From positions 34,633 to 98,632 of the IMG/VR virus record IMGVR_UViG_3300021387_001106: a stretch of DNA of 64,000 nucleotides; one strand, given 5' to 3'. This document shows positions 16,483 through 44,392 of the stretch, piece after piece. Below the pieces are notes generated by a model that saw only the letters and a list, made by a program, of their open reading frames with translations, did no database searches and had not been told where the DNA came from. The translations under genes and the position numbers were made by a program. The DNA comes from a virus. Taxonomy: Duplodnaviria; Caudoviricetes. Numbering within the stretch: position 1 is the first letter of the stretch; each line of letters starts with the position of its first letter.

Positions 16483-17022
16483 ATGAAAGCGGATTGGCTC
16501 AATAGGAAAGTCGAAAAAATCAGAAGTTCTATGTTAGAGCGGTCGGACGGTGGCCCCGGCAGTGGTAACTGGGGACACGTCGGAAGGCCAGGGGAACCCG
16601 GTGGCTCCCAAAAAGGCGGTGGGAAAGCGTTCCGCATGGTGAATGTAGTAAAGAACACATATACATCACAGCCGAAGATCAGGCAGGCTGCCAAGCAGCA
16701 GTATAAGAACGCAAAACTGTCTGGCAGCGCCAAGCTGCTCGCAAAGGCGCAGAAGCGCATGAAGAGCATCAACACGAACATAAAGACCGCTGATGTCAGG
16801 AAGGCCGGCAAGAAGGGCTATCAGGTCGTCAATGAGATCGACGAAAATGCAAGCAGAAATATCCTGAAGGACAAAAAGCGCGGCAAGTCGGCAAGGGAAA
16901 ACAACCTGATGAAGGTAAAGGGAACGAATGAGACGATCAAGTACACATTCCCGAACCGGGTCACAAGGGGCGGCTCTGGCAAACGTGGTGGCAAGACCAC
17001 TGTGCGGAGAGCGAAAAACTGA
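16483..17022 (+). CDS. highly basic protein with RSD-GGPGSGNWGH motif (putative head cargo)
   Basis: AAGGAGG RBS; motif shared with the ORFs at 22088 and 23297. Confidence 0.7.
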   Translation: MKADWLNRKVEKIRSSMLERSDGGPGSGNWGHVGRPGEPGGSQKGGGKAFRMVNVVKNTYTSQPKIRQAAKQQYKNAKLSGSAKLLAKAQKRMKSINTNIKTADVRKAGKKGYQVVNEIDENASRNILKDKKRGKSARENNLMKVKGTNETIKYTFPNRVTRGGSGKRGGKTTVRRAKN

Positions 17023-17037
17023 TAAAGGAGGAAGGCA

Positions 17038-17337
17038 ATGCCCGATGTTGAAAAATTATCATACGAGGTAGCGATGCTGGCAAGGAGTTTCACGCCGGCT
17101 GAGATGGAAGTGTTTGAAACACTGCTCGATTATACCGAGACGCTTCCAGAAGGTTTCTTTAGTGATAAGACTCTGGAAGAGCTCAACGAGCATTTCGGCG
17201 GCCATGACGACATGGTGGTCACAGAGAAGGTCCGCACCGCGCTTGACAAACAACAGATGGTTGACCTCATGATGGACGCGATGATGCAGATATACGATGA
17301 CCTTCCCGAAGATGACGAGGATGAAGACGAAGAGTAA
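17038..17337 (+). CDS. small acidic protein
   Basis: AGGAGG RBS. Confidence 0.7.
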   Translation: MPDVEKLSYEVAMLARSFTPAEMEVFETLLDYTETLPEGFFSDKTLEELNEHFGGHDDMVVTEKVRTALDKQQMVDLMMDAMMQIYDDLPEDDEDEDEE

Positions 17338-17373
17338 CATCACGCAACAAAAACCGACAAAAATGGACATGGA

Positions 17374-17398
17374 ACAGGGCTGAAAAGCCCTGTTTTTT
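17374..17398 (+). terminator. intrinsic terminator
   Basis: acagggct-gaaa-agccctgt plus T run. Confidence 0.75.
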
Positions 17399-17460
17399 GT
17401 TACCTAAGAAAAAAGCGGCAGGAGTACGGTAAAGATTATCACTCGCCGTAAGGAGAGAGC

Positions 17461-20400
17461 ATGGCAAGCAGGAAGGAAAAAATCGACTCGCTCAGGCGCT
17501 ACACGAACTTAATACAGAAGCAGACCGGCAGAGTCGTAAGACCCTACCGCATGGACGGCTATGTCAACATGCTCACCAAGTACGGCACGTCCCGTGATGC
17601 TTCGGAAAGATATGAGTTTAAACAGGAACCACCGGTACCGGATGAACAGCTCACTTCCTTCTACGAGGGGAACGGACTGTTCGCCAAGATCATAGACGCA
17701 CCGGCGGAAGAGGCCATCAAACACGGCTTTGAGCTGGAAGGGCTTCAGGACCAGAACATCGAGGACTTCTACACGGAAGCACTTGAAGAGCTGGACTGGG
17801 AAGAGACCATGATGACAGCAGTCAAATGGGCAAGGCTTTTTGGCGGTTCCATCGCTGTCATGATGATCAATGACGGCAGGGGTGTTGATGAGCCTCTCGA
17901 CTGGAAGAACATCACATCTATCGACGACATCAGGATATATGACCGTTCCCTAATACAACCAGACTACGGAAGCATGTTCTCCTACGACCCGGACGACCCG
18001 TTCGGGACAAGGGGGAGCCGGTTGGGTATGCCTGAATACTACGATGTCTACAGCCGGTACGGGAGCTTCCGGGTGCACGACTCCAGATGCCTTGTATTCC
18101 AGAACGGTATACTCCCTGAGAACACGAGCAATTCTGTCTATCAGTTGTGGGGTATGCCGGAGTACATCAGGCTCAACAGGGCGATACGTGACGCTGAGGT
18201 CGCACACGGAACGGCTCCAAAGATGCTCGACCGCTCCATACAGGCGGTCTACCGGATGAAAGACCTTGCAACAGAACTTGCTACAGAGGAAGGCGAGGAC
18301 AGGGTTCTCAGGCGTCTACAGACCATCGACATGGCAAGGGGGCTTTTAAACTCCATCACCATCGACAGCGAGGGCGAGGATTACGACTTCAGGCAATTTT
18401 CATTTACCGGCGTTTCCGAGGTCATCGACACGACATGCAACTTCCTGTCTGCATTGACTTCCATCCCACAGACCATCCTGTTCGGAAGGTCACCCGCCGG
18501 TATGAACTCCACGGGCATGGGAGACCTTGAGAACTGGTACAACTACCTTGAACGCATCCAGAACCGCATGATAAAGAAGAACCTGAGGTATCTTCTGAGC
18601 ATCATCTTTCAGGCGGGCGTATGTACCGGTGAGATAGATGAGGTCCCACCTATCAAGGTCAAGTTCAACCCGCTGTGGTCACTGTCCGATCAGGAAGAGG
18701 CGTCCCTTGAACAGATGAGGGCGCAGGTTGCGAACACCAATGCCAACACCGCTATGGTCTACGTCCAGATGCAGGCGCTCGACCCTTCTGAGGTCAGAAA
18801 GAAACTTGCGGATTCCGAGGAGTTTGATGTTGAGACTCTGCTCGACGAATATACCGAGGAGGAACTGGAAGAAAACGACCCTATGAAGAAACAGGCGGAA
18901 GGTGCTATGCCGGGTATGGAAGGCGGCGGTATGCCGGGAATGCCGGGGATGCCTGCAATGCCCGGTGGACCGGAAGGAGCACCGCCTGAAGGGGCACCGC
19001 CACAGGCACCGGATGCTATGGGCGGAACACCTACTGGAAAGGTTCAGCCTAATGACGGCCCTAAACCCGAAATGGCGCAGGGCGGCAAAGAAAAGGATAC
19101 GGATATTGGCGGGAACGCCCCGGCTGCTGCACCGGCAGCAACAAAACTTCCTGTTGATATGAGCGGGAAGGAAAAGGACAAAGCAGAGGAAGCTAAGGAA
19201 GAGCTCAAGAAGCCTGTAGACAAGGCTAAAGACAACACTCAGGAATCGACAGCTAAGCCAGAAGAAAAGGCAGAAGATGCAGAGGACACTCTGCGCAATG
19301 CATGGCTTGGTGTCGGGCCTGAAGAAGAAAAGCCCTCTGATAAAAAGATTATCAAAAAGCCAAAAAAGCCCGTCGACCCGCTCCCGGGGGATACCCTTCG
19401 GAACGCGTGGCTGGGAATCACTCCAAAAGAAGAAGAGGATGAGGAGGACACGCTCACAAAAGCATGGCATGGAACAGAACCGGTCGATACTGAGGATACG
19501 CTCAGGAACGCATGGCTCGGTAACATTCCCGTGAAACCGCCTCATGGCTCCAGGATCGTCCGTACACGCAAGGGGGATATTTCTATCAGGGACTTCCGTG
19601 CGGCGTCCAGAGAGGACGAAGAGAACCCTCTGACGGCAATGTACGACCATGAGATCACCGCCAGAAATGGCAAGACCTACAGGGCGTTTGAGGGCGAAGG
19701 CTACAAAGCCTATGGCGAGAGGATGCGTGAAAGCTCCCGTATGGATGCGGGTGCGCAGGGTGCAGTCGGCGTGTATGTCATCAAGGATGGCAAGATACTG
19801 ACAGGCATTCGTGGTGAAGGGGATGGACAATACCTTCTCTGCGGTCCCGGCGGACACATCGAAGAAGGTGAGACCCCCGGACAGGCTGCAATACGCGAGA
19901 CACAGGAAGAGTTTGGTATCACACCCATGGAGCTTATCCCGTTCGGGAAAGGGGAAAAGCAAAGCAACGGTCTACGGCCTGACCTGTTCCTATGTGTCAG
20001 GTTTGAGGGGAAACCCAAGTGCGATGAACACGAGATGCACAATCCGAGGTTCACAGCCATCGAAGAGATCGAGCACTCGGGCCGCCTGTTCAGGCCGTTT
20101 GAAAACGGCATCCAGAAGCTGATACAGGCAGTTACTGGAAAGAACATCCACGCAGATGATGAAAAGTGGATTACTGTCAACGGAACACACGTACTTGTTG
20201 ATGATGATGGAACCGCTAAAAACGGCGGCAAGCTCAAAGGAATGTCTTTTTCAAAAGCCGAGAGCGAGGAAAGCGCAAAGCAGACCAATGCTCCCGGCTC
20301 AAATAAAATACTCTTCCAACCGTCAAAGACTAAGATTAACAGGGAAATCTCTGATATAGCGGATAAGAGCACGCAGGATACGGTTGAAGATGACATTAAG

Positions 20401-21633
20401 AAGATTGGGAAGCTGCTTGACACACTTGAACCCGGCTCCGTAGTCACTGTCCCGGCAAATCTTGCGGGGGATGATAAGTACACCTATACAAAAGATGAAG
20501 ATGGAAGATGGGGTGGAAAAGGCACCAACGGAACATGGAAAGCTGAGGACATCGCGTGGGATTTTCTCTATGAAGACCCGAGGGAACGCGCATATATCAG
20601 CAAGTCCGCATTATCGGAAACTGAGAAAGAAAAAGACAGACAGAGCTATGAGGCACGGAATTTCCGCAATCAGGAATCCCCGTGGGCCGGTGACAACTCA
20701 TTGGCTCAAATGGCTGAGGTACAGCTTCAGAGGGAAGACCTGAAGAAAGCCGGTGAAGGCACCGTAGCGGTCGATAAGGATGGAAGACAGCTCCAATGCC
20801 ACGGAGATGGCGTATGGACAGACAGGGACGGAAACATCGTGAAGAATCCATCCGGGCTGAAAGTGGAAGGTGACTACTTCGATATAAACTGCGGATTGAA
20901 CGGCATGGATCCTATCGAAATAAGCAAGGTCAGGGACGTGTTCGATAAAATGCCACCGGATATTCAGGGTATATACGAAAAAACCTTCAGGGAACATGGC
21001 GTAAGACCGTCTGAGGAAGGATGGGACATCTCATATTTCAAACCGTCAGATGGCCGTGTATATCTCCGCGAGGGGTCGTCAGCGGGCACCTTCTTCCACG
21101 AGATGAGCCATGCGCTTGACAGAGGGGCCGTAGACATAGAGTACGTAAAAGAAAACGGAGAGAAATACAGGGTGACGTCTGCGGCGGAAAACCTTGACTG
21201 GCTTGCGCATCCGCTTAAAGAAAAGGGAAGAGAAGACTTCGAGACGATGGCAAAAATCGTCGGATTTAATACTAACGGGAAGGGATGGTTCGCCAACGAG
21301 AAAGAAGAACAGGCGTCCGTCCGACAGTTCATCGACTGGGCATATAAGTATTCCGATATACCGGGATTTGAATGTGTCAGCGATGCAGTAAGCGCAATGA
21401 CATATGACGTATGCGGGGCAAGCATATACTCTGGCGGTCATGACAGGCAGTATTGGACAGGCTCGTACCTTCAGGGCAGAAAGACATCTGCAACGAGCGA
21501 TGAATACTGGGCGAATTTCTGTGAACTTAAAGCGATGCGCTACGATACTGCTCTAAAACTCCTGAAAGTCATTACGCCGAACAGATATGCTGCGGCAGAG
21601 GCGACCTACAAAGAAGCCTTTAAGAAGAGGTAA
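17461..21633 (+). CDS. portal protein (DUF1073-like) fused to Nudix hydrolase and HExxH metallopeptidase-like domains
   Basis: N-terminal ~480 aa portal-like (KIIDAPAEEA, ARLFGGS, IPQTILFGRSPAG, FNPLW); Nudix box GGHIEEGETPGQAAIRETQEEFG; FFHEMSHALD. Confidence 0.85.
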   Translation: MASRKEKIDSLRRYTNLIQKQTGRVVRPYRMDGYVNMLTKYGTSRDASERYEFKQEPPVPDEQLTSFYEGNGLFAKIIDAPAEEAIKHGFELEGLQDQNIEDFYTEALEELDWEETMMTAVKWARLFGGSIAVMMINDGRGVDEPLDWKNITSIDDIRIYDRSLIQPDYGSMFSYDPDDPFGTRGSRLGMPEYYDVYSRYGSFRVHDSRCLVFQNGILPENTSNSVYQLWGMPEYIRLNRAIRDAEVAHGTAPKMLDRSIQAVYRMKDLATELATEEGEDRVLRRLQTIDMARGLLNSITIDSEGEDYDFRQFSFTGVSEVIDTTCNFLSALTSIPQTILFGRSPAGMNSTGMGDLENWYNYLERIQNRMIKKNLRYLLSIIFQAGVCTGEIDEVPPIKVKFNPLWSLSDQEEASLEQMRAQVANTNANTAMVYVQMQALDPSEVRKKLADSEEFDVETLLDEYTEEELEENDPMKKQAEGAMPGMEGGGMPGMPGMPAMPGGPEGAPPEGAPPQAPDAMGGTPTGKVQPNDGPKPEMAQGGKEKDTDIGGNAPAAAPAATKLPVDMSGKEKDKAEEAKEELKKPVDKAKDNTQESTAKPEEKAEDAEDTLRNAWLGVGPEEEKPSDKKIIKKPKKPVDPLPGDTLRNAWLGITPKEEEDEEDTLTKAWHGTEPVDTEDTLRNAWLGNIPVKPPHGSRIVRTRKGDISIRDFRAASREDEENPLTAMYDHEITARNGKTYRAFEGEGYKAYGERMRESSRMDAGAQGAVGVYVIKDGKILTGIRGEGDGQYLLCGPGGHIEEGETPGQAAIRETQEEFGITPMELIPFGKGEKQSNGLRPDLFLCVRFEGKPKCDEHEMHNPRFTAIEEIEHSGRLFRPFENGIQKLIQAVTGKNIHADDEKWITVNGTHVLVDDDGTAKNGGKLKGMSFSKAESEESAKQTNAPGSNKILFQPSKTKINREISDIADKSTQDTVEDDIKKIGKLLDTLEPGSVVTVPANLAGDDKYTYTKDEDGRWGGKGTNGTWKAEDIAWDFLYEDPRERAYISKSALSETEKEKDRQSYEARNFRNQESPWAGDNSLAQMAEVQLQREDLKKAGEGTVAVDKDGRQLQCHGDGVWTDRDGNIVKNPSGLKVEGDYFDINCGLNGMDPIEISKVRDVFDKMPPDIQGIYEKTFREHGVRPSEEGWDISYFKPSDGRVYLREGSSAGTFFHEMSHALDRGAVDIEYVKENGEKYRVTSAAENLDWLAHPLKEKGREDFETMAKIVGFNTNGKGWFANEKEEQASVRQFIDWAYKYSDIPGFECVSDAVSAMTYDVCGASIYSGGHDRQYWTGSYLQGRKTSATSDEYWANFCELKAMRYDTALKLLKVITPNRYAAAEATYKEAFKKR
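19282..19524 (+). repeat. four EDTLRNAWLG-type peptide repeats in the portal linker
   Basis: EDTLRNAWLG, GDTLRNAWLG, EDTLTKAWHG, EDTLRNAWLG. Confidence 0.85.
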
Positions 21634-21638
21634 AACGA

Positions 21639-21845: not shown

Positions 21846-21861
21846 ATGATCGGAGAAGGAT

Positions 21862-22068: not shown

Positions 22069-22087
22069 CCTGTTACAGGAGATGACT

Positions 22088-23251
22088 ATGGAACGGATAC
22101 AGGCGATAAAACTGAAATCCATACAGATACGCTATCGACTCAGACAGAGGATGGACGGCGGCCCGGGTTCTGGCAACTGGGGGCACGAGGGGAGACCCGG
22201 CAAGATCGGCGGATCGGCGGAAGGCGGCGGCACACATAACCGACAAAAGAACAGGTTCGGCGGCTATACCTCGTTCAGCAAATGGAGAAAAGAATCTGCG
22301 AGGAGCCACGCGCTTACGAGTCAGGACATAAAGGATGTCTACGACTTCGAAGACATTATCATTGTCGACAAAGACGGAAACCGATACCAGAGGAGCGGGC
22401 ACAACTTTGAGTGCAAAACGACCGGGGATAGAAGGGATTTCGCTATTGGGGATGAATGCCGGCTCATCATCCCGAACAAGCTCAGTCCGAATTACAAGGT
22501 CACCCGCGATGATAAGAAGGCAATGGCCTTGAATCAGGAACGGTTTGAAAGAGCGTTCTACCCGGAGGAAAGAGGCGATGCCGATACCAGATACAGGTCT
22601 GAAGCCGGGGAAATATGGAATGGATGCAGCGAAAAAGAAAAAGATTCCATGTATAGATATACCTCGTCGGAGTATAGGAGGATAAACAAAAATGTTCGCG
22701 GCGGTAATACCGATGACGAGGAGTGCAACGAGACCATAGCAGCTATCACGGATGTGATAGACAGGTCCGAATTGAGACAGGATAGTGTCCTCAGGAGAGG
22801 AATATCGCTGGGAGCCGCTGAGAAACTGTTCGGGCTGCCAGAGGGGTATCTGGAGGCCGGCAATCATGCCGATGAAGGGAACATCTCCATGGTCGGCAGG
22901 GTCGGAACTGATGATGCGTTCATGAGCTGCGGTTCATCCCGAGATTCCGGGAATGACCGTCAGGTTGTTCTGGAGATTCTGGCTCCTGAGGGAACCAAGG
23001 CCATGTATTGTGAACCGTTTTCCGCGCACGGCTTGGGTGACAGAAAACTGTGGGACGGGAAAAGCGGACAAGAATACTTTTCCTCTGAATGCGAGAGCCT
23101 TTTGCAAAGAGGAACCACTCTACAGGTCATCAGCCACGAGATGAAGGACTCGTTTGGGTTTACATACCATACGATGAGAGCGGTTATTTTAAGGCAGGAT
23201 ACAGGAAGTTCTGAATACAGTCAAAAGATAAAAAAGGCAAAGTGGAATTGA
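22088..23251 (+). CDS. VIP2/C3-like ADP-ribosyltransferase with RMD-GGPGSGNWGH leader
   Basis: YTSSEYRRIN..., LRRG, FMSCG, SECESLLQRG (R-S-ExE). Confidence 0.75.
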   Translation: MERIQAIKLKSIQIRYRLRQRMDGGPGSGNWGHEGRPGKIGGSAEGGGTHNRQKNRFGGYTSFSKWRKESARSHALTSQDIKDVYDFEDIIIVDKDGNRYQRSGHNFECKTTGDRRDFAIGDECRLIIPNKLSPNYKVTRDDKKAMALNQERFERAFYPEERGDADTRYRSEAGEIWNGCSEKEKDSMYRYTSSEYRRINKNVRGGNTDDEECNETIAAITDVIDRSELRQDSVLRRGISLGAAEKLFGLPEGYLEAGNHADEGNISMVGRVGTDDAFMSCGSSRDSGNDRQVVLEILAPEGTKAMYCEPFSAHGLGDRKLWDGKSGQEYFSSECESLLQRGTTLQVISHEMKDSFGFTYHTMRAVILRQDTGSSEYSQKIKKAKWN

Positions 23252-23296: not shown

Positions 23297-24406
23297 ATGC
23301 CATCAATTCAGAATGACTTGAAAAGGATCCGCCTTTCCCTTAAAAAACGAAGAGAAGACGGATATACGGGAGAAAAAACATGCACAGGCGCATATAAAAC
23401 GCATGGGAAAATTGACCGGGGGGCCGCAAGTGCTATAATAAAGTTGAAGGGGGGGAAGGTACGGGCAGATAGCTGCCAAAAAGGACAAGCGGACGGCGGA
23501 CCGGGAAGCGGAAACTGGGGACATGAAGGCAGGGACACAGGTGAACCCGGCGGTTCAAAGCCCGGTGGCGGAAAGAAAAACAGGACATACCGCAATAAAA
23601 TAGGTTTCATTGCAACAATGAAGAAAGGAGACGCTAAACTTCTCGAACGGACAGACAGAAAGGTGGCTAAGATGAGGAAAAAGCTCCCCGGGCTCATGAA
23701 AGAAAGCCATGAAACATGGGAAAGCTGTGTAGCCGCCAGCAAAAGCGGGTCTTCAATCCCTTCCGGGTCTGAGGCAAGAAAAGACAGAGTTTTAAAAGGG
23801 CTTTCGCCGGGGGCACAGAAAAGGTATGACCGAGTTTTCGAAGCAGAACAAAGGATAACAAAAGACCTTATCGGCATTGCGTCCGACAGTGGAACTGAGA
23901 TGTACGGCTTGGATTTTTCGCTGAAGAAGGGTTCCTCTGTGGTAGAGAAGGTCGCAAGGAAAAGAGCGGCGGATATTGCGCGTGAACTTAAACCTAAAAC
24001 AGACGAAGAATATGTATCTCAACTCGGGGACCTTGTCAGGTACACACAACTTTGTGACCATAACAAGATGGCAGACGTCGCAAAGGGCACGCTGTCTTCA
24101 CTGAAGGCAAAAGGATATGACGTAGTCGAGGTAGACAACAAGTGGCAGGATGAGAAGTCCACATACAAAGGATTTCACATAATCGCAAAGGATAAGAACG
24201 GACAGCGGTTTGAACTCCAGATACATTCGAAAGAGAGTATGGATGTCAAGGAGCTTAACCATGTGCAATATGAAGTTGCAAGGCAGCCAAAAGCCAGCGC
24301 TTATGTCAGGGATACGCTCGACCCACAAATGGCTGAAAGAACTGCAAAAATGAAGAAGCCAAAAGGGATGAACGATCCCGCCTTGAAGTCGTGGAAAAAT
24401 GAATGA
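23297..24406 (+). CDS. RelA/SpoT-family nucleotidyltransferase (small alarmone synthetase-like)
   Basis: KKGSSVVEK, DLVRYT, YKGFH, FELQIH correspond to SYN1-4-like motifs. Confidence 0.75.
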   Translation: MPSIQNDLKRIRLSLKKRREDGYTGEKTCTGAYKTHGKIDRGAASAIIKLKGGKVRADSCQKGQADGGPGSGNWGHEGRDTGEPGGSKPGGGKKNRTYRNKIGFIATMKKGDAKLLERTDRKVAKMRKKLPGLMKESHETWESCVAASKSGSSIPSGSEARKDRVLKGLSPGAQKRYDRVFEAEQRITKDLIGIASDSGTEMYGLDFSLKKGSSVVEKVARKRAADIARELKPKTDEEYVSQLGDLVRYTQLCDHNKMADVAKGTLSSLKAKGYDVVEVDNKWQDEKSTYKGFHIIAKDKNGQRFELQIHSKESMDVKELNHVQYEVARQPKASAYVRDTLDPQMAERTAKMKKPKGMNDPALKSWKNE

Positions 24407-24419
24407 AAGGGGGGATAAA

Positions 24420-24677
24420 ATGAGAGAAGTGACCTACTATCTGGCGGATAACTGCGGTAACATTATCCTCATGAAACGTGTGCGCGACCCTAAAAAAGGT
24501 ATTTTTACCGGATATATCTGGAACCCGCACAAATGGGTCGAGGCATGGGAGCTTTGTTGTGATTACTTCTACGGATACGAACCCGCCAAAGTAACAGATG
24601 AAGAGGGGGCCAAGGCTTACATGGTCGAGGCCGGTGTAACCGGGGAACAGGCAGAGGAGTTCCTGAAAGAGGATTGA
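24420..24677 (+). CDS. small protein, candidate immunity partner
   Basis: G-rich RBS; directly follows the synthetase. Confidence 0.6.
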   Translation: MREVTYYLADNCGNIILMKRVRDPKKGIFTGYIWNPHKWVEAWELCCDYFYGYEPAKVTDEEGAKAYMVEAGVTGEQAEEFLKED

Positions 24678-25801: not shown

Positions 25802-25880
25802 AGGAAGAACTCAAAGAACATAGACGATGAACTATGGGACAGCAATGACTGTTCTTTTTTTTGCACAGAAGGAGGCGCGG

Positions 25881-31130: not shown

Positions 31131-31131
31131 T

Positions 31132-34100: not shown

Positions 34101-34194
34101 AAAGTATGATGAAGCGACTGGGAAGACGGATATTGATCGGGCTAACAGATATTTCGATAAGATTAAGAAACAGGAAGGCGGGGGAATAGTATGA
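31132..34194 (+). CDS. 1020-aa modular protein: three W-motif modules, two ART-like domains, C-terminal toxin-like domain
   Basis: GGAGG RBS; MYRSG..LFFAP..IKNPL..YDSII; MYRGG..SSYT..ESEIL; HEKH..E.G...Y...A..F. Confidence 0.75.
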   Translation: MERLSLGDRMMLEAGFLPIMFNNKGSRKDDDWVTISGTHVLLNENGKAQGGGKLKGKTFSKAKSSGAGTGTGGASAQRTKRMQDKLSKALSGKGSKDDKYGAVRDILKNCEVGSTYRVGDALFTKMKDTDDERESSLALGNSDYADWSFSDMVHMMEYHFTHENDPPEFVDRGKKRAEVQEKISELKKSGELSGTEEMKKLEQGLISKDSPDFGKPGKYVMYRSGKVGKRSGMLFFAPDKAGADTYADLHDGDTVQYSVDIKNPLVVTGSADGECLRKAWQSLHPGQTPPKNLTGSSWKKMDRENASALEGSQYDSIIYKIGDRPQEIQIPAKRGKELEKLATYTTTDWSRAGRSIEDAIFADKFKDDPHDFKRIDSREDSTDDDLYENEDFRYFLCDWKRARHKDDEEWKTINGTHVLVDTETGSVNKGPDGLKKWSESKKPGPNGSGSSHSGTSTEKGLSGAMKPAQTGYDMTLDDGFDDFVRKNMGNRRNPKALYSFYHEVEDNGGDGHEAVKDEYQKSRLAMCTEGLKEISRDEADEILYDNLNHGTVQQWFREYNHEVKDGLVWQMTQSPGVHNAALNIMYGNYKYNCMEEGSEPLPFEQFLVTPIKMYRGGTGMEYDEAGAFSSYTFNRKVAESFTGSEVGQGHSFDPNGVVYEAEIRPIDTYGSVYTNGESEILVPKMIAPNKNRDSADSREDEESARMFSTVELFAMFSVYGNSYTEKKLIDIASRHGTILLGGRNAHGDEKPASWISTEEGHHIPLNKEGIAIGGAGGWATGKDFSGAKSESKSKQSDKPEKKKKPGQKREAPQGGKPFIYVGSVKRNKGTKPKPTGGSSGSSEKPKVSSETGRTPVSRVTPEPTGKSTAEKKRETRPEEKRREHRAEPKKGTAAHPSPRGENIPCTGMKNDNCVKLHEKHYKEVGASGREDYEKKAIDFIKQPCGGDIDGYCRWPEPGSKKKPVIVRFNRKTGEIGFGIPGSFFLSYYVAKYDEATGKTDIDRANRYFDKIKKQEGGGIV

Positions 34195-34435: not shown

Positions 34436-34448
34436 CGTGGAGGAAATG

Positions 34449-35381
34449 ATGGAAAACAGGATTGATAAAACCATCGCGAGAATCAGAAAAGACCATAGAA
34501 CCCGAATGGACGCTGAGGAAAAATGGATAACGGTCAATGGAACACATGTAAAGGTCGATAAAGAGGGAGAGCTTAGTGGGGCAGTTGGCAAGAAGATAAG
34601 CTCCACATCAAAGACTACAAAGAAGTCATCCGGGCCTTCTAAAAAAGGTGTTTCCTCAGCAGCAAAGAGGATTACTGACATCATTAAAAAGATAGATGAT
34701 GGCAGTGTCCCGGATATGAGTGGAGCTGAACAGATCATGGATGAAGTAAAAAATCTACCAGATGGTTCAGTTATAAATCTTTCACTTTTCGGCAGTGATA
34801 TGGAATACACGAAAGGCAACGGGGGGTGGACAACGAACGGCGTTGATGTAGACGTGGATGAGCTTTTTAACGACATTTACGATGGAAAAAATCTAAAAAT
34901 AACACAGGGCAAAAAAAGCGAGAAAAATGGTAAGAATGCTTATTCGCCCGGATTAAAAGGGTACAACAAACTTATAGAAGACACGATGTCGAAAAAAGAG
35001 CCTGCGGAAAGAAGGGCATTTCTTGAAGCAAATGCACACTGGCTCAATGGAAAGCCAAAAGAATCGACAGACTACATAAAAAATCCTGACAACATGACTA
35101 AGAATCAAATGCTTGATGCCGCAAGTGATATTGCATACAAGGGGCAACCCGGGGACGTAATAGAAGTAAAGACGAAAGATCGCGGTGGAATTACATCAAC
35201 GTCAAGGTATATAAGAACTGACAAATATAACTGGATAGACGAAGGACAACTCTATAATTTAATGAATAATGCAACCGCTGGAAGACAAAATAAGTCTTCT
35301 CAAAATGAAATGTTTAGGGAAATTAAATATTTCATTGATAACGGAGAAATGCGTGGAATGAAATTTCACCGGTATTCATGA
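34449..35381 (+). CDS. putative head cargo protein (RMD + WITVNG motif), function unknown
   Basis: GGAGG RBS; TRMDAEEKWITVNGTHV. Confidence 0.7.
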   Translation: MENRIDKTIARIRKDHRTRMDAEEKWITVNGTHVKVDKEGELSGAVGKKISSTSKTTKKSSGPSKKGVSSAAKRITDIIKKIDDGSVPDMSGAEQIMDEVKNLPDGSVINLSLFGSDMEYTKGNGGWTTNGVDVDVDELFNDIYDGKNLKITQGKKSEKNGKNAYSPGLKGYNKLIEDTMSKKEPAERRAFLEANAHWLNGKPKESTDYIKNPDNMTKNQMLDAASDIAYKGQPGDVIEVKTKDRGGITSTSRYIRTDKYNWIDEGQLYNLMNNATAGRQNKSSQNEMFREIKYFIDNGEMRGMKFHRYS

Positions 35382-35444: not shown

Positions 35445-36860
35445 ATGAAACCTATTCAGCGGATAAAGCTCGATACCATCCGCATCAGACACTCTTATAA
35501 GAGAATGGACGCGGATGATGATACCCAGTGGATTACCATTAACGGTGCGCATGTCCCAATAGATACAGGGGGGAATCTCAGGGGAAGCGTCGGAAAGAAA
35601 ATAGCCAAGACTTCGACTGGTAAAAAGTCGTCTGGTGGTGGAAGCAGCTGGAAAAGGTCTGCCGACAAAGTACCTACGACAGCAAAGTGGGGAGGCGCTT
35701 CTGGCTCAAAAAAAACTGGTAGCAACAGTTCCGTAGGTCACGAAATGACTGGACATACTGGTAATCGTTATCAAGAAAGCGGAACGGAAAAAGGGAATCC
35801 ATATTCCACAGTGGCGGCTTCGAGGCCAAAGAAGAAAACCGTATATGGCAAGATGAAGGACAGCGAGTTTGTTCCAAGTGGGAGCTGGACTGAGAGAAAG
35901 CTCATAAAGGAGAATACAGCCAAGTCATCTTCAAACTCTGGCACCGGCAAATTCAAGATGCCAAAAAGCGGAAAAACAGGGATAACTCACCCAAATGGAT
36001 CAGAGGCGTCTCAGGAAGACATTGTTGATGCTGTAGAGTATATGAAAGGAACAGGGGACAAGGCTTCACTCAGAAAAGACATTGAGGCCGGTAAGTTCTC
36101 GAAGAAAGAGATCGAGAGATGCCTGGACTATCACGCCACAAAAGGGATTCCTTCCAGTAAGAAAAACTCATATTTTAAAAAACTTCAAAACGAAAGGAAC
36201 GGAGCTGAATCGTCGGAGAAACGACAGAGCACCACTAAAAATCCACACCTAAAAGATGGATGGGGAGACACTTACAGACATACCCCGGGGGCTGGAAGCA
36301 CATTTCAGGGATTATTCAAAGATGGAAAGCGTGTCGGGTATATTGAACACTGGGAAGATGATGGTGACCATGGGTATTCCGTCTATAAAGACGACAATAC
36401 ATTCTTAGGCGGTTTTCGTTCGGCAGATAAAGCAAAAAAAGCGCTGGAAAAAGAAGCAGGAAAAAGCAGGACAAAAAAAGCAGTTGAGGCACCTGCATAT
36501 TCCGGGCCCCGGTCCGGTGACAAAAAGCTGGATTCTCAGTTTGATAAGACCCGGCAAGCACTTGCTGAATGGGAGAAAGCTAAACAGGATGAGCAAAAAG
36601 CGTACAAAAGAGTATGCAGAAAACTTGGGATAAAAGAGACGAGACAAGAAAGCATACACAGTTCTTCCAATCAGGCAAAAGTAAGGGCCGCAAAAGACCC
36701 GAACCTGATCGCCGCTGAAAAAGCGAGCGAGAACGCGATGTCAAAACATGCGAGGGCCACAAGCGAATTGAAAAAGCAGTATGGGGAGTATAGGAAGAAC
36801 GGCGGAAAAGCCATAAGCGAATACTACAGCGCAGCAAGAGAATGGGATGATTATGATTAA
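35445..36860 (+). CDS. putative head cargo protein (RMD + WITING motif), basic
   Basis: AAGGAG RBS; KRMDADDDTQWITINGAHV. Confidence 0.7.
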   Translation: MKPIQRIKLDTIRIRHSYKRMDADDDTQWITINGAHVPIDTGGNLRGSVGKKIAKTSTGKKSSGGGSSWKRSADKVPTTAKWGGASGSKKTGSNSSVGHEMTGHTGNRYQESGTEKGNPYSTVAASRPKKKTVYGKMKDSEFVPSGSWTERKLIKENTAKSSSNSGTGKFKMPKSGKTGITHPNGSEASQEDIVDAVEYMKGTGDKASLRKDIEAGKFSKKEIERCLDYHATKGIPSSKKNSYFKKLQNERNGAESSEKRQSTTKNPHLKDGWGDTYRHTPGAGSTFQGLFKDGKRVGYIEHWEDDGDHGYSVYKDDNTFLGGFRSADKAKKALEKEAGKSRTKKAVEAPAYSGPRSGDKKLDSQFDKTRQALAEWEKAKQDEQKAYKRVCRKLGIKETRQESIHSSSNQAKVRAAKDPNLIAAEKASENAMSKHARATSELKKQYGEYRKNGGKAISEYYSAAREWDDYD

Positions 36861-37094: not shown

Positions 37095-37129
37095 GGCTGC
37101 CAAGATTGCCCTGTAAGGCGCTTAAAGAC

Positions 37130-38044
37130 ATGGATGGTACAAATTATCAAGATAAGGCCCAGAACCTCGTACAGAGGAAATTCGGACGCAAGAAAAGGAT
37201 GAAAAGCAGGTACGCACCACGGTACCCGTCAAGTGCTGAGCGTGAGTACAGGCGCATCAACAGCGCGTATGTACAGATACTCGATAAGACGCTGGAGAAG
37301 CAGCTCCCTTCCATCCTGAAAGCCTATGAGAAACAAATGCGCAAGGACAGCCACGAGGACGGTGTCTTTGATTTCCTTCCGTTCCTTCGAAAGAAGATAC
37401 ATGCCATGGCGGACACGATAGCAAAAGCCATGGAAAGATTTCGGTTGCAGGAACAGATCGGGAAGATAGGGCGCATGGTTCAGGAGAGGTCTATCACCGA
37501 ATGGGGGTCAGCCCTAAAGAGCACCCTTGACATTGACATACCTGCGGATAAATACAGGGAAGGTGCATATGAGCAGGAGATGCAGAGATGGATTTCCGAC
37601 AATTACAACTATGTCAGGAACATACCTGTAGACACTCTGCTTGAGATTGAGAACCTGATAGCAGATGCTTTCCGGGACGGTGTTGACATAGACGTTCTCG
37701 AAGAGGAAATTCGGAACCGGCTCGATAAAGCGTTCAACAGGGGGCAGTTTGCAGCGATAAGTCAGGTGTCCTCACTGAATGCTTACATGATGAAGTCCTT
37801 CCAGACCGGGGCCGGCGTAAAGAACTACGTATGGATTTCATGCCGGGACGACAGGGTCAGGGAAAGCCACCGCTCATTTGACGGAAAGACGTTCTCATGG
37901 GATGACCCGCCAGAGGATTGGTACCGGACAAAGGAACGAGGGGTCGTCAGGACCGGGAAGAGATACAATCCCGGGGAAGCACCCGGGTGCAGGTGCTGTG
38001 CTGTTCCTGTGTTCGACAAGAAAACATTTGAGATTCCAAAGTAA
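37130..38044 (+). CDS. MuF / SPP1 gp7-like minor head protein (no C-terminal toxin)
   Basis: YVWISCRDDRVRESH...FSWDDPP...PG...CRC. Confidence 0.85.
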   Translation: MDGTNYQDKAQNLVQRKFGRKKRMKSRYAPRYPSSAEREYRRINSAYVQILDKTLEKQLPSILKAYEKQMRKDSHEDGVFDFLPFLRKKIHAMADTIAKAMERFRLQEQIGKIGRMVQERSITEWGSALKSTLDIDIPADKYREGAYEQEMQRWISDNYNYVRNIPVDTLLEIENLIADAFRDGVDIDVLEEEIRNRLDKAFNRGQFAAISQVSSLNAYMMKSFQTGAGVKNYVWISCRDDRVRESHRSFDGKTFSWDDPPEDWYRTKERGVVRTGKRYNPGEAPGCRCCAVPVFDKKTFEIPK

Positions 38045-38089: not shown

Positions 38090-38112
38090 ATACTTGAAAG
38101 GGGGCTTACTGT

Positions 38113-38435: not shown

Positions 38436-40022
38436 ATGGACAGACTTCAGATGAATATGCTTGCCGAGATAGTAAGGATACGGCATCAGCTCCGCAGAAG
38501 ACGTATGCAAAACTCCGAAATGGACCGTGTAGGGCTTTCTGGTACAATAAAAGTATCCGGGGAACCAAACCGGGAAGACGATGAAGGAACCTGGGTCACC
38601 ATTAACGGAACGCATGTTGAGATTGACAAGGAGACTGGGGGTATCACGAAGGGCCCAAAAAACCTGAAGGACTACTCCGAAAAAAAGAAGGGAATAAAAG
38701 CAGCGGGACGGAAGGCAATCGATACAGCAAAGAGCAAGTGCGATGACCTGAAGAAAAAAATGGACAAGGCGGAGGCGGCGGAAAAGGAATGGGAGGATAA
38801 GGAGTATTTAGCACGCCTTGATGTGGCTTTTGCTAAAGGACACATCAACATCGTGGAGGATAATCTCAAAAAAGCAAAGGCTGAGCTCAAGAAGTACGAT
38901 TCTGGTCGCTCAGACGAAGAACTGGACAAGGCAATCAAAGACACTCAGAAAGAGATGGATGAGCTGCTGGAATGGATCGACGCACATCCACGTGAGCATG
39001 GGGAACCGCATGAACAGTATTTGGAGCGTCGCCACAAGAGAGAACTTTACTCGGATGCAATGAACAGGTATCTGAACGCTTCCTCTGAAAAACATGCAAG
39101 GGAAGACCTGAAAAAAGCAGAAGCGGATTATCATGAGACTGTTGCAAAACTTGAGGCGGCTGAAAAGGAACATGAGAGGATAAAAGCGGAGGAGCCAAAA
39201 GCATATCAGAAAGCCCGAGAGGAATATAACAAAGCCGCCAAAGAAAGAAATGAGGCTGTATTAAAGACGTTCAAAACTGCTGATGACTGCGAGACATCAC
39301 AGGATGCCACGGACTATATCCGTGCGAGGGAGTATTTTGACCAGAGTGAAGGCTACCATAAATCTGACAAGAATACCGACCTGACAAAAATGTCTCCAGA
39401 GATGGCCATTGCCCATGCGAGGACGCTTGACCGTTTCTTTGGTGATTATCCCGGCCTGAAGGGGAGATTTGAAGGAATTGACTGCCGTGATATGAGTAAA
39501 GAGCCCGGATACGAGTCAACCTATGGATATGCAAGCGGAACGATGGTATCCTTAAATACGAAGTATTTTGGACCGGGCGGCAAGGGAAAAGAATCGTACG
39601 AGAAAGACTGCCATGACTTCAAGCTCTCGCATAACGGCTTCCATCCAAAGGGGACATCTGTCGAGGCGGTCCTTGACCACGAGTTTACACACGCAATCGA
39701 GGCACTGCTGAACAAATGGCTCGGGAATGGGCAGAAGGCTTCAGACATCATCATGCAACGGGCTCAGGAAAAGATGACAGGATATTACGCCAGAAGCAAC
39801 GAGGACTATGTAAGGGCACAGGTCAGCGGATATGCAAGAGAGAACAGGGGCGTAAAACCCGATGGAAAAGGCGGGGCAACTGTTGATAAAGCCTATGGCG
39901 CCAACACTGAGTTCATAGCTGAGGCGATGGCAGACGCACGGAACAACAAGGCACCGGCCCTGTATTCTTATGCGGTAAGGGAAGTAATGGAAGAAATGAT
40001 GAAGGAGGCTGGACTTATATGA
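38436..40022 (+). CDS. putative head cargo: W motif, coiled coil, HExxH metallopeptidase-like domain
   Basis: NREDDEGTWVTINGTHV; DHEFTHAIE...EFIAEA. Confidence 0.75.
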   Translation: MDRLQMNMLAEIVRIRHQLRRRRMQNSEMDRVGLSGTIKVSGEPNREDDEGTWVTINGTHVEIDKETGGITKGPKNLKDYSEKKKGIKAAGRKAIDTAKSKCDDLKKKMDKAEAAEKEWEDKEYLARLDVAFAKGHINIVEDNLKKAKAELKKYDSGRSDEELDKAIKDTQKEMDELLEWIDAHPREHGEPHEQYLERRHKRELYSDAMNRYLNASSEKHAREDLKKAEADYHETVAKLEAAEKEHERIKAEEPKAYQKAREEYNKAAKERNEAVLKTFKTADDCETSQDATDYIRAREYFDQSEGYHKSDKNTDLTKMSPEMAIAHARTLDRFFGDYPGLKGRFEGIDCRDMSKEPGYESTYGYASGTMVSLNTKYFGPGGKGKESYEKDCHDFKLSHNGFHPKGTSVEAVLDHEFTHAIEALLNKWLGNGQKASDIIMQRAQEKMTGYYARSNEDYVRAQVSGYARENRGVKPDGKGGATVDKAYGANTEFIAEAMADARNNKAPALYSYAVREVMEEMMKEAGLI

Positions 40023-40282: not shown

Positions 40283-40308
40283 TGGCAGATAACTGAATAT
40301 GGTTTAAC

Positions 40309-40334
40309 AAGCAGGGATAACACCCTGCTTTTTT
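40309..40334 (+). terminator. intrinsic terminator
   Basis: aagcaggg-ataaca-ccctgctt plus T run. Confidence 0.7.
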
Positions 40335-40369
40335 GTTGCACAGATATTATCACTCAGGGAAGGAGGAAC

Positions 40370-40639: not shown

Positions 40640-40827
40640 GAACAGGGTGTTTTTACACGCCTCAAATAACTCAAAAAGTAGCAGCTATTACAATATATTG
40701 TCACACAACTATACTGTGGGTCAAATATATACAGTAAAATGGACAGGGTACCACCCTGTTTTTTTGTTGGCAAAAAAGAGGGAGGGCAAAGCTATGAAAG
40801 CACGCATCAGGGGGAGGGATTCTCCTA

Positions 40828-41178
40828 ATGTCACAGCAACCGGAACTCATGGCGAAAGGAGCAAATGGAATGACGAATGAGGACGTTATTATCGACCTGA
40901 GCAGGCAGCTTGAAGCTGTAGCGGAACGGATAAAGGAGATTACCGAGGGCATTTCCGCAATGCGCGAGGGAAATCCGTCTATCTGCGAAAACTACGAGAA
41001 CTTCCTGCTTGATGAGGTGGCGCACGTACAGATACTTGCGCTTGACCTGACACAGGCCGTAACGGAAGGGGAGGACGGCAACCTCGACGAAGCCTTCGGG
41101 CCGGGTGAACTTACGGATGTGCCTGAGAATGAAGACGAGGACGAGGAACCGGACGAACCAACGGAGGAAGATGCTTAA
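40828..41178 (+). CDS. acidic helical protein
   Basis: GGGAGG RBS; abuts the protease gene. Confidence 0.65.
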   Translation: MSQQPELMAKGANGMTNEDVIIDLSRQLEAVAERIKEITEGISAMREGNPSICENYENFLLDEVAHVQILALDLTQAVTEGEDGNLDEAFGPGELTDVPENEDEDEEPDEPTEEDA

Positions 41179-42771
41179 ATGAAACTGAAAAGGGTGATAC
41201 GCCTTGACAGTATGCCACTAAACCGGGCGTCATTTACACCGGAAGGATTCCTGATGGATACGCCTATACTGACGTGTACGGGTATCTTTGAATACACAAA
41301 TCCTGACGGCTCTGTGAGAAAAGAACTTCGTTTGCCAGAGGAGGTCTTTTCGAAAGAAAGCCTTGCGTCCTATGAGGGTTCGCCAATCATCATAAGCCAT
41401 GACGCAGGGTTGATCACAAAGGACAATGTCGCTGAGAATGAGATAGGAACCATTCTGACGAAAGGCTTCCGTGACGGAGACAATGTCAGGGCAAAAATCG
41501 TAATCCATGACACGGACGAGATGAAGGAAAGTGGACTGAAGGAACTTTCCCTTGGCTACAACCTTGACCTCGATGAAACTCCCGGGGAATGGAACGGAGA
41601 ACCGTATGATGCGGTTCAGCGGAATATCCGCATAAACCATCTGGCACTTGTCAGAGAGGCAAGGGCCGGGGAACAGGCACGTTTGAACATCGATGGCAAA
41701 GGTGCTGAAAAGAAAGGAGAAGACATAATGGGTTACAGAAAACTGACCAAGACCAGAACAAGGGCAAAGACAAGAAGAGTGAGACGCTCTGATGGCATTC
41801 TCTCTCCTGATGAGCTGAAAGAGGCGATCAAGGAGTACAGGAAACGTCATCCCGAAGCCGGTCAGGGCGGCAACAAGGATGAGGATGACGAAGAGAAGAA
41901 ATATGCGATCCCCGCTGTTGAGCAGGACGACGACGATGTCTCCCCTGAGGAAGCAGCAGCCGAGAAGATCAGGCAGGAAATGCAGGCGAAGCTCGATGCC
42001 GAGGAGGATGACCTCGCTCAGGCAAACGAGACCATTCAGCATCAGGACGAGGACATCCAGACCCTTCTGGACATCATCGACACCCTGCTTGCGGAGCGCG
42101 ATTTCAACGGCTCCAAGACTGATTCCGACGATGAGACTCTCCCCACTGAGGAAGAGAACACCGATGAAGATGAGGAGGTGATCCCAGAGGACGAAAACAC
42201 CGACGAGGACGAGGAGTTCGCTGACGAGGAGAACACCGACGAGGATGAGGAGTTCACCGACGAGGAGAACACCGACGAGGACGAAGAGTTCCTTGACGAG
42301 GAGAACTCCGACTGCGACGACGAGGAGCTGAAGGAAGACGACGATGAGGAAGAGGAGCTCATCGAGGACGATGCAGACGAGGACATCCCGGATGCAACCA
42401 AGGCCGAGGCTGCCGTGATGAACGCTGACAGCATCGACAGGATCGTCCGTGACCGCGTCAAGCTGGGCATCGTTGCCGACAAGCTGCATCTCCGTGGACT
42501 GGAGAACATGTCCATGAGAGCCGCCAAGAAGGCAGTCATCCGCGTGGTCCGTCCTTCCATCAATCTTGACGGCAAGGGCAACACCTACATCAATGCCATG
42601 TTCGATCTGGCCTGCGATGATGTGAAGGTCCGTTCCCGCAAGACCACCCGGTACCAGAGGAAGCAGATGTTCAACAAGGATTCCCGCAGAGCGGTATCCA
42701 GAAGGGGCAACTCTGCTGAGGATGCACGCAAGAAGATGATCGCGCGTCTTCAGAAGAAGAGAAACAAATAA
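41179..42771 (+). CDS. DUF2213 prohead protease fused to an acidic scaffold
   Basis: [37 protein letters not shown]. Confidence 0.85.
42148..42330 (+). repeat. tandem ~33-36 bp repeats encoding E(E/D)ENTDEDEE in the scaffold
   Basis: About five units visible in both DNA and protein. Confidence 0.85.
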
Positions 42772-42791
42772 TATAAGAGGAGGCAAGAAAT

Positions 42792-43286
42792 ATGAGCGCA
42801 CAGCTGAATTACAGATATTCCACACCCCTTGGCGTGGCCGGCGGTATCGTCGATCTTGCGCCTTATGCGATCGATACCCTCAAGAATGAGGAAGAGAACG
42901 GCGTCATGACTTTCGGCATCGCTGTCGTTTCCGGTACGAACGTCGGCGTCCAGATCAAGAAGCCCGTTGCAGCTTCCACCGCTGCGAATTTCGAGGGCAT
43001 CGCGACCAACAATCTGACCACAGAGTACGACCTTGACGGAAAGATCCGTATCCTGAAGGGTTCCCCGGTCGGCGTCATGCGCTATGGCCGCGTGTACTGC
43101 CGTGTGGCAGACAACGTGACCCCGGCTTATGGCGATGCGGTCTACTTTATCAAATCCGGTGAACAGGCTGGATACGTCACCAACAGTTCTACAGGCACCG
43201 TTGCCATCAAGGGACGCTTCCTTGGAACCGTTGACGCAACCAACCGTGTCGCTGAGGTTGAACTGTTCAACCAGGCTCAGGTATAA
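42792..43286 (+). CDS. capsid decoration/cement protein
   Basis: Between protease and MCP; beta-rich, 164 aa. Confidence 0.7.
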   Translation: MSAQLNYRYSTPLGVAGGIVDLAPYAIDTLKNEEENGVMTFGIAVVSGTNVGVQIKKPVAASTAANFEGIATNNLTTEYDLDGKIRILKGSPVGVMRYGRVYCRVADNVTPAYGDAVYFIKSGEQAGYVTNSSTGTVAIKGRFLGTVDATNRVAEVELFNQAQV

Positions 43287-43312
43287 CGGCTTAATCAAAG
43301 GAGGCGAAAACT

Positions 43313-44392
43313 ATGGCTAAGAAAAGACACACATCCTATGACAGGGCTGACCTGAAAGCCCTTCGTAATTCTGGTATCCCTGCGACCATCATGGCCTCTG
43401 CCGGTACCAGATTTGACAGCGTGGACGACGCGTCTGTCTTCTTCGCTCGTGAACTCGACCACGTCAAGGCACAGTCCTATGACGTTGAGTATCCTGAGCT
43501 GACTGCTCTGTCCCTGTTCCCCCAGACCTCTGAGGCGGATGAAGGCGCAGAGACCATTACCTACTACACCTACGATAACGTCGGTCTCGCGAAGGTTCTG
43601 GACAACTACTCCACCGACCTTCCCAGAGCAGACGTGATCGGTAAGCCCAGCTTTGCAAGCATCAAATCCATCGGTGACAGCTACGGCTACTCCGCACAGG
43701 AGATGCGTGCATCCCGGCTGGCCGGCAAGTCCCTTGACGCAAGAAAAGGTGAATCCGCTCGTTATCAGGTCGACAACCTGATCAACCGTATCGCATGGGC
43801 CGGTGACAAGGGCTCCGGTCTGATGGGCGTCCTGTCTGAGGGCCAGAACATCCCTCTCTATCTTGTCGCAGCCGGCGGCACCACTGGCAAGACCAAGTGG
43901 ACCGAGAAGAGCGCAGACGAGATTCTGGACGATGTCAACGGCATGGCGAAGCAGGTCGCAAAGGTGACCAAGAACGTCGAGCGCCCCGACACCCTGTGTG
44001 TCCCTGCTGACGTTTACATGGACATCTCCACCAGACGTATCCCGGATACAAGCACCACCGTCCTGAAGTTCGTTCTGGATCACGCTCCCTACATCAAGGA
44101 AGTCATCTCCACCGCCGAGCTGGATGCTGATTCCCCTGAGACCAACCCTTATGCAGTGACCGGCGTCACCTATGAGGTTGACGGCCAGAACTTCACTACC
44201 ACTGAGGGCGTGGGCGTTGCGTTCCTGTTCAAGAACGACGTTCGGAAGCTGGCACTGGAGAACCCTATGCCCTTCCGCCAGTATCCGATCCAGGTCCGCA
44301 ACCTTGACACCGTTGTCCCCTGCGAGGCAAGGACTGCCGGTGTTATCGTTTACTACCCTCTGTCCTGCCTGATCGCGGTCGGCGTCTGCTGA
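43313..44392 (+). CDS. major capsid protein (DUF2184-like)
   Basis: FFARELDHV, DLPRAD, YGYSAQE, ends VYYP; strong codon bias; followed by a terminator. Confidence 0.9.
   Translation: MAKKRHTSYDRADLKALRNSGIPATIMASAGTRFDSVDDASVFFARELDHVKAQSYDVEYPELTALSLFPQTSEADEGAETITYYTYDNVGLAKVLDNYSTDLPRADVIGKPSFASIKSIGDSYGYSAQEMRASRLAGKSLDARKGESARYQVDNLINRIAWAGDKGSGLMGVLSEGQNIPLYLVAAGGTTGKTKWTEKSADEILDDVNGMAKQVAKVTKNVERPDTLCVPADVYMDISTRRIPDTSTTVLKFVLDHAPYIKEVISTAELDADSPETNPYAVTGVTYEVDGQNFTTTEGVGVAFLFKNDVRKLALENPMPFRQYPIQVRNLDTVVPCEARTAGVIVYYPLSCLIAVGVC

Follow-up and report, generated by a model that had tools for sequence, protein, structure and literature searches.

A tag-punctuated cargo block in a phage head module, with putative processing after x-x-Asp by a DUF2213 protease

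Introduction

Phage polyvalent proteins are multi-effector polypeptides fused to MuF, portal or capsid-processing peptidase domains (Iyer, Burroughs, Anand, de Souza, Aravind 2017, PMC5512222; PMC9503650), and are predicted to be packaged, injected and processed by an embedded metallopeptidase (PMC5512222, PMC9503650). The present analysis concerns a block of such proteins encoded in the head module of a virus (Duplodnaviria; Caudoviricetes), IMG/VR record IMGVR_UViG_3300021387_001106, of which the right-hand 64 kb of 98.6 kb (positions 34,633 to 98,632) forms the window, that is, the whole stretch of 64,000 nucleotides to which all coordinates refer. Nine open reading frames (ORFs) of this block, all for effector-like proteins, are punctuated by two short conserved peptides, here termed tag A and tag B; because the tags follow Arg/Lys-x-Asp motifs that match the head-protease cut in capsid proteins, the tagged proteins are probably cut up and loaded into the head. 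We regard it as probable, though well short of assured, that they constitute a head-module arsenal of polyvalent-type cargo that the DUF2213 protease would cut into single units.

Effectors packaged in the head are what a phage first deploys against the defences of its host, and to our knowledge the way in which head cargo is chosen and matured is known only for T4, P1 and the giant phages. The internal proteins and Alt of T4 carry a capsid-targeting sequence that is removed by the gp21 protease; this system, together with phiKZ gp175 and SPN3US gp245, is among the closest known to that of the window. MuF polymorphic toxins, which ride on a head protein, have been described without a linker motif or cleavage (Jamet et al. 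2017, PMC5576092). Site and tag together would show from sequence where the units of polyvalent proteins adjoin, across thousands of unnamed protein clusters, would yield predicted mature cargo ends, and lead to a proposed DUF2213 specificity, [R/K/H]-x-Asp, anchored on published Edman data; DUF2213 head proteases are very common, with 1,881 cultured phage records.

Relation to described systems

The window system would function like T4 targeting and gp21, and belongs with the polyvalent proteins. It shares with the latter the predicted packaging, injection and processing into units, effector fusions to head proteins (MuF, portal or the capsid-processing peptidase), the occurrence of ADP-ribosyltransferase (ART), ParB-like, NUDIX, RelA/SpoT and metallopeptidase domains among late or head genes, and the presence of at least two effector domains per polypeptide, as in the window portal with its NUDIX domain and HExxH unit; for the two polyproteins of the block, pp1 and pp2, multi-effector status is indicated solely by ESM-Atlas leads. 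It differs in that its sites match the head maturation protease, processing of polyvalent proteins having been assigned to an embedded metallopeptidase, and in that the tags mark unit boundaries by a sequence rule; full-text look-ups of PMC5512222 and PMC9503650 returned no mention of either tag. The Pfam domains ART-PolyVal, LPD, PBECR and Kinase-PolyVal had no match in the window and are present in tag-bearing relatives.

The likeness to T4 lies in the same protease fold (Z 10.7), an acidic residue at the predicted P1 position, ART among the cargo, and an N-terminal leader ending in a site common to the major capsid protein (MCP), with R-x-D at the end of five leaders and R-F-D in the MCP. 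Unlike T4, with its L/I-x-E site, the window would have Asp at P1 in [R/K/H]-x-D and not Glu; its leaders are basic and 21-23 residues long, its units are also concatenated and appended to the portal, its conserved tag would stay on the mature unit, and its head module is unrelated, with a PF09950 MCP and a PF06381 portal. As for MuF toxins, variable toxin domains ride on a head protein, with tag A or tag B after MuF in other phages, whereas in the window MuF holds PF04233 only and the toxins have their own leader and tag. The heads of T1 and TLS (Drexlerviridae) have the same portal, MuF, DUF2213 and PF09950 module and a capsid cut after x-x-D; unlike the window, TLS has no cargo block in its scanned head and tail region (record 8-32 kb).

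Two tags punctuate the cargo proteins

The nine tagged ORFs, all on the + strand, lie between 16483 and 40022 and hold 14 tags in total. Tag B, W-[IV]-T-[IV]-N-G-x-H-[IV], occurs in 11 copies in six proteins, namely the portal (residue 903), pp1 (residues 113, 559, 867 and 1337), pp2 (residues 50, 428 and 772) and three further ORFs, o314, o471 and o538, with one copy apiece; tag A, GGPGSGNWGHxGR..G..GGS, is found in three copies in three proteins. Hidden Markov models of the tags score the 14 copies at 38-68 bits and, across six frames of the whole 98.6-kb genome, find no further copy, the next best match falling below 5 bits; all 14 are confined to 16.5-38.7 kb of the window.

Of the 14 tags, 13 have an [RHNK]-x-D motif no more than 12 residues ahead of them, compared with 2.0 ± 1.3 at random positions in the same proteins (0 of 20,000 trials reached 13) and 5.9 ± 1.6 after shuffling of the upstream 12-mers (P = 5e-5). 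R-M-D is seen six times against about 1.1 expected, with every copy at a junction. The six N-terminal leaders are basic, 21-23 residues long, and have a common [IV]-R-[IL]-R core; R-x-D ends five of them, and the internal tags of pp1 are also preceded by leader-like basic stretches. These data bear on the original prediction, made from the sequence of the window, which had proposed that about ten ORFs share a layout of basic leader, x-x-D, short conserved peptide and variable enzymatic domain. The x-x-D junction is borne out as enriched, and the layout and its order are real, although the tagged ORFs number nine and the enzymatic nature of every unit is not established; the proteins of 1749 and 1020 residues were rightly described as concatenations, pp1 comprising four and pp2 three tag-delimited units.

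Similarity between units ends after the tag in BLASTP comparisons among them, save for a second module of about 50 residues in some units. This module, P-x-G-S...Y-x-Y-T-K..D-G-x-W, follows tag B and a K/S/G-rich linker, and is carried by the portal (residues ~985-1040), o314 (residues ~100-150), units 3 and 4 of pp1 and unit 1 of pp2, with BLASTP matches of E 1e-5 to 3e-8 over 86-212 residues.

Both tags contain Asn-x-x-His (N-G-x-H, N-x-G-H) within a strand-turn-strand arrangement, reminiscent of NPTH, the turn at which FlhB and EscU cleave themselves. Tags that cut themselves would be consistent with the invariance of His in the 11 window copies of tag B, with that of both Asn and His in a 93-sequence alignment of tag A, and with the conservation of the tags across phages with differing head proteases. 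Self-cleavage nevertheless merits barely any credence: several of the 11 copies of tag B in the window have another residue in place of Asn, many tags lie 4-12 residues from Met1, where almost nothing would be released, and the lineage-specific residue before the tag would be left unexplained.

The junction matches the capsid maturation site

The x-x-D junction of the original prediction is real, and corresponds to the capsid maturation site of DUF2213 heads (K-N-D in TLS and, judging by where the T1 model starts, K-Q-D in T1). Edman sequencing of the TLS virion capsid protein gave the N-terminus ASDMGIW (PMC11447400); the TLS gene reads AKND|ASDMGIW, which places the capsid N-terminus directly after K-N-D, and the protease, MCP and portal of TLS belong to DUF2213, PF09950 and PF06381, respectively. 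The cryo-electron microscopy model of the T1 MCP begins at residue 27 of 319 (PMC11945409), and this A27 directly follows K-Q-D26 in T1 gp47.

In the window, the MCP gene (PF09950; 43313..44392, + strand) encodes R-F-D at residues 33-35 (43409-43417), and in a capsid profile alignment T1 D26 and the TLS cut Asp pair with R-F-D35. Nineteen close MCP relatives have [R/H/N]-F-D-[S/G/D] at about residues 33-35, immediately before the conserved N-arm, and an AlphaFold2 (AF2) model of the MCP (mean pLDDT 82) places R-F-D in a coil, with short helices on one side and the N-arm helix on the other. Carried over from TLS and T1 by alignment only, a cut of the window MCP after R-F-D35 is therefore a prediction. 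Sites without tags are likewise predicted in the portal (R-M-D before NUDIX) and in the protease linker, and because these and the MCP site stand without tags, the tag would not be needed for the cut; the tag as part of the cleavage signal was accordingly rejected as a candidate.

The DUF2213 protease

The gene for the head maturation protease (41179..42771, + strand) encodes an acidic, scaffold-like C-terminus behind a domain that matches DUF2213 (PF09979; Pfam E 1.9e-33, 116 bits versus a cut-off of 22) and PHROG 530 'head maturation protease' (E 9.9e-81). H74, S124 and H154 are invariant in 20 sequences. The AF2 core (residues 18-170; block-mean pLDDT ~90) aligns with T4 gp21 (5jbl) at Z 10.7 and a root-mean-square deviation of 2.8 Å over 128 residues, the best among 48,161 chains, with herpesvirus proteases at Z 9.0 (varicella-zoster virus), 6.6 and 5.8 and unrelated chains at no more than 5.9. 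Judged by this model, assignment of the core as a protease of the T4 gp21/assemblin fold with a Ser-His-His set is credible.

Two candidate self-sites flank the core in stretches where the AF2 pLDDT is below 50: R-L-D10 (41200-41208) at the protease N-terminus and R-S-D203 (41785-41793). A conserved [R/H]-x-D, R-S-D203 in the window, stands behind a basic stretch some 40 residues past the core among DUF2213 proteins, and R-S-D203 is a candidate for the release site expected between protease and scaffold. About four acidic repeats occur in the scaffold-like part (42150-42400), a region that is a possible partner of the basic leaders. A literature search on DUF2213 found no biochemical paper; the Pam3 paper held no cleavage data, and a preprint on CBASS and prohead proteases nothing bearing on specificity.

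Distribution of the tags

Degenerate DNA patterns for each tag, run against IMG/VR, matched at least 118 stretches for one and at least 114 for the other; Pfam and NCBIfam hold no model for either tag. Among 1.84 billion cluster representatives, a 93-copy profile of tag A matched 6,097 at E <= 0.001. Of these matches, 169 reach E <= 1e-30; proteins of 2,000-2,500 residues hold as many as 9-10 copies, and the top proteins bear ART-PolyVal, ADP-ribosyltransferase, ParB/ParB_N and 2H domains. Up to nine copies of tag A occur per contig, also after HK97-type portals and MuF ends; it directly follows the MuF end HPNC[RK]C in contigs L144, L147 and L215, and tag B follows MuF in L070. Tag B appears in three settings: behind leaders resembling those of the window; close to the N-terminus, within 4-12 residues from Met1; and inside long proteins, right after a PF06381, Mu-type or lambda-type portal core or after MuF, where PBECR1, NUDIX, a kinase of polyvalent type or the like comes next. 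Polyproteins bearing as many as five tags, and fusions of portal, ART and NUDIX, emerged from a word-index search with tag B; almost all tag-B polyproteins and portal fusions are unnamed in public sources.

Taken together, the tags follow four portal families and MuF, and flank head proteases including S78-like ones, with a tag-ART-DUF2213 fusion in one abundant group and a tag-LPD3-DUF2213 fusion in another. In L135 (1788-3956, - strand), an S78-like domain precedes copies of tag A at residues 297 and 558. Among DUF2213-negative phages, an extreme N-terminal tag B is usually preceded by [RK]-E-[VIP]-K-x (L026, L027, L034, L050, L056, L097, L107), and genes with an N-terminal tag B can stand in tandem, with four in L050/L056, a 111-kb phage. 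Searches of PDB sequences with both tag profiles gave no match, nor did tblastn of tag segments against cultured phages, which is weak evidence given that the queries were short or Gly-rich; a literature search with the tag motifs as text gave nothing relevant.

DUF2213 was found in 21 of 49 tag-B contigs, nearly all of at least 19 kb, and in 26 of 50 tag-A contigs. Among near-complete genomes, 6 of 17 with tag B are DUF2213-positive, and 11 of 17 with tag B and 5 of 14 with tag A are DUF2213-negative. FP_Brigit and TLS (the latter scanned over the head and tail region given above) have DUF2213 heads and no tags. Tags are thus neither exclusive to DUF2213 heads nor required by them, since tagged DUF2213-negative phages and untagged FP_Brigit and TLS both exist, and the claim of a grammar peculiar to DUF2213/DUF2184 phages fails in view of the many tagged phages that lack DUF2213 and of the association with Mu-, lambda- and HK97-type portals and S78-like proteases; specificity of the tags for DUF2213 is ruled out by the same tagged, DUF2213-negative phages.

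In a wider interpretation, the tags would be universal sorting or exit signals for head-carried proteins of any head type, with the four preceding residues tuned to each phage's own protease. We consider this unlikely, if with an appreciable chance of being correct; were it true, tag and site together would amount to a portable code predicting capsid cargo and mature ends in thousands of uncultured phages, and chosen proteins could be loaded into phage heads.

The residue before the tag and the head protease

The residue ahead of tag A varies among contigs but not within one. Where it is Asp, a strong DUF2213 match is present in 21 of 23 contigs, the two negatives being about half-complete fragments; DUF2213 is found in 0 of 15 contigs with Lys and 0 of 3 with Asn, and contigs with Leu or Ala have a strong match in 0 of 8 and a weak, partial DUF2213-like match in 5 of 8. 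The association of Asp-type tag A with strong DUF2213 (21/23 versus 0/27 others) gives a Fisher P of 4e-12; like the other contingency tables of the analysis, it carries no correction for kinship.

The Leu/Ala lineage is GC-rich. Its tag junctions have the sequence R/K-[TAV]-[LA]|GG and its capsid proteins R-[AT]-[LA]|[SA]P; tag A directly follows a divergent DUF2213-like protease domain, and the protease of this lineage is therefore embedded in a tag-punctuated polyprotein. L297-L299 have such a divergent DUF2213-like domain with tag A directly behind it. The residue before the HK97-type N-arm is Lys in a few Lys-type contigs and Asn in a few Asn-type contigs; searches with PF04586 (S78) and PF05065 located head genes in no more than a few contigs of Lys type, so that the Lys covariation rests on 3-4 contigs and that of Asn on 2. 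The capsid protein of HK97 is cut after Lys103.

Processing might instead be the work of the embedded zincin-like HExxH domains of the portal C-terminus and o538, with the head protease uninvolved. Two such units lie in the block, and Iyer et al. 2017 propose autoprocessing by a domain of this kind (PMC5512222), but no Pfam peptidase model matches the HExxH units, the residue at the junction goes with the family of the head protease and with the capsid site, and many of the tag-punctuated proteins examined are without a recognisable metallopeptidase, all of which makes a metallopeptidase origin of the cuts very unlikely.

Within-protein uniformity was assessed in 86 proteins with at least three copies of tag A. 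Position -1 is the most uniform (0.87 versus 0.55 shuffled), followed by -3, -2 and -4, with -5 to -8 near random. Proteolysis would play no part if the tags were conserved cassette boundaries or flexible linkers, like the pre-toxin motifs of polymorphic toxins, across which recombination swaps effector modules while polyproteins and extended portal stay intact in the virion. Gene conversion gives uniformity of the kind seen on both flanks and inside tag A, and the halt of unit similarity right behind the tag agrees with cassette exchange, as does the presence of tag A and tag B within one protein in 8 of 120 relatives. A ParB-like domain ending in M-P-V-L-I-I-G-x-P is followed by N-R-H-D and tag A in L188, and by H-E-R-M-D and tag B in the window (28300-28430); since the same end precedes either tag, the two are interchangeable, which again fits swapped cassettes. 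N4 vRNAP-type polyvalent proteins are, moreover, packaged unprocessed (PMC5512222). Such linkers would, however, leave unexplained why the junction is the measured or inferred capsid cut site in two deep lineages, why uniformity at -1 far exceeds that at other flank positions, and why leaders of 21-23 residues ending in the site stand ahead of N-terminal tags; we hold this account to be distinctly unlikely.

Proposed processing of the cargo

The reading that we prefer, cutting by the head protease, can be set out as follows. The arsenal would comprise stand-alone effectors, two polyproteins and the extended portal, each unit taking the form [site]-[tag]-[linker]-[variable domain]. Inside the prohead, the DUF2213 protease would cut behind the Asp of [R/K/H]-x-D, and four classes of site are proposed: R-F-D|S in the MCP, R-S-D|G in the linker of the protease itself, the leaders of the cargo, and the junctions inside pp1, pp2 and the portal extension. 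The basic leaders, which would be removed by this cutting, may bind the scaffold part of the protease, which is very acidic, and so target the cargo in the manner of T4 targeting sequences. From pp1, pp2 and the portal extension, single units would arise and exit together with the DNA. The tags would remain on the mature units, possibly serving in retention, exit or presentation of the site. The predicted cleavage rule has good indirect support.

Several points weigh against this reading. [RK]-x-D is common by chance inside domains, with 35 matches of the R-x-D type in 8,688 residues. One DUF2213 sublineage has F-Y-G-S, without the Asp, at the protease N-terminus, so that the N-terminal motif of the protease may be structural, and the notion that the conserved N-terminal R-[LFM]-D-S is necessarily a cut site falls with this sublineage. 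The association of DUF2213 with Asp may partly reflect shared descent. For tag B, an Asp within 10 residues upstream is present in 20 of 21 DUF2213-positive versus 18 of 28 negative contigs, and is thus only weakly DUF2213-specific; at least 15 residues stand ahead of tag B in 19 of 21 positive versus 13 of 28 negative contigs. Variable positions within tag A, and positions +1 to +4, likewise show within-protein uniformity, which falls off with distance; concerted evolution therefore explains part of the upstream signal; the effect size at -1 alone stands out from it. The capsid cut sites assigned to the Lys, Asn and Leu lineages are putative, and the cutting of the cargo and its loading into virions are likewise predictions.

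Genome setting and gene order

The source virus is a gut-type phage, and its nearest cultured relative is Faecalibacterium phage FP_Brigit. On the + strand, TerL (13620-16052) is followed by o184, the portal, ART, a RelA/SpoT-like protein, a radical SAM protein, pp1, pp2, o314, o471, MuF and o538, and then by the DUF2213 protease, a cement protein and the PF09950 MCP. The cargo had been placed between terminase and prohead protease, and all cargo ORFs do lie between TerL and the protease and MCP genes; this gene row also upholds the description of a polymorphic cargo within the head module. Proteins of the block without a tag include the radical SAM protein (24959-25801, + strand), which also has no leader, and the stand-alone MuF head morphogenesis protein (PF04233, 312 residues; 37106..38044, + strand), which has no toxin domain.

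The tagged proteins

Three proteins carry tag A. The basic o184 (179-184 residues; 16483..17022, + strand) has a 22-residue leader ending in R-S-D ahead of tag A (16549-16614); no enzymatic domain was found in it. The ADP-ribosyltransferase (PF03496, E 3.4e-16; 22088..23251, + strand) has a 23-residue leader ending in R-M-D, followed by tag A (22157-22222). The RelA/SpoT-like protein (23297..24406, + strand) has a leader ending in R-E-D, with tag A (23495-23560) after Q-A-D; its Pfam RelA/SpoT match is weak, and in its C-terminal half it aligns with the C-terminal end of the XopAD/skwp effector family (NCBIfam E 6e-19) and also with the C-termini of PHROG 'head morphogenesis' (MuF) toxins. An ORF of 92 residues overlaps its stop codon (region 23297-24677) and may be an immunity gene.

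The portal (1390 residues; 17461..21633, + strand) comprises PF06381 at residues 63-425, a linker extension, R-M-D at residue 760 (19738-19746) directly before NUDIX (residues 767-870), H-A-D with tag B (20167-20265), and an HExxH domain (21097-21111). The portal-NUDIX linker (19285-19521) has a Pro/Gly/Met-rich acidic stretch in which D-T-L-[RT]-[NK]-A-W-[LH]-G occurs four times.

The polyprotein pp1 (25827..31130, + strand) has 1767 residues from 25827 or 1749 from 25881, with tag B at 26163-26261 (degenerate), 27501-27599, 28425-28523 and 29835-29933; ESM-Atlas gives leads, and leads only, to an ART-like last unit (0.92) and a ParB-like second unit (0.83). In pp2 (1038/1020 residues; 31078..34194, + strand), tag B stands at 31225-31323, 32359-32457 and 33391-33489. 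Leaders of 22 residues ending in R-M-D precede tag B in o314 (311-314 residues; 34446..35381, + strand; tag at 34524-34622) and o471 (471 residues; 35445..36860, + strand; tag at 35529-35627), the latter being rich in K, S and G beyond the tag. The last, o538 (528-538 residues; 38436..40022, + strand), has a basic leader, after which come R-E-D and tag B (38592-38690), and carries HExxH (39678-39692) at its C-terminus. Pfam gave no match in the units of pp1 and pp2 or in o314, o471, o538 and o184, and on ten unit segments at E up to 0.5 returned noise only.

Upstream of the block, TerL is interrupted at residues 229-325, between its N-terminal part and its Terminase_6N/6C domains, by a LAGLIDADG/Hom_end insert that resembles an intein or homing endonuclease.

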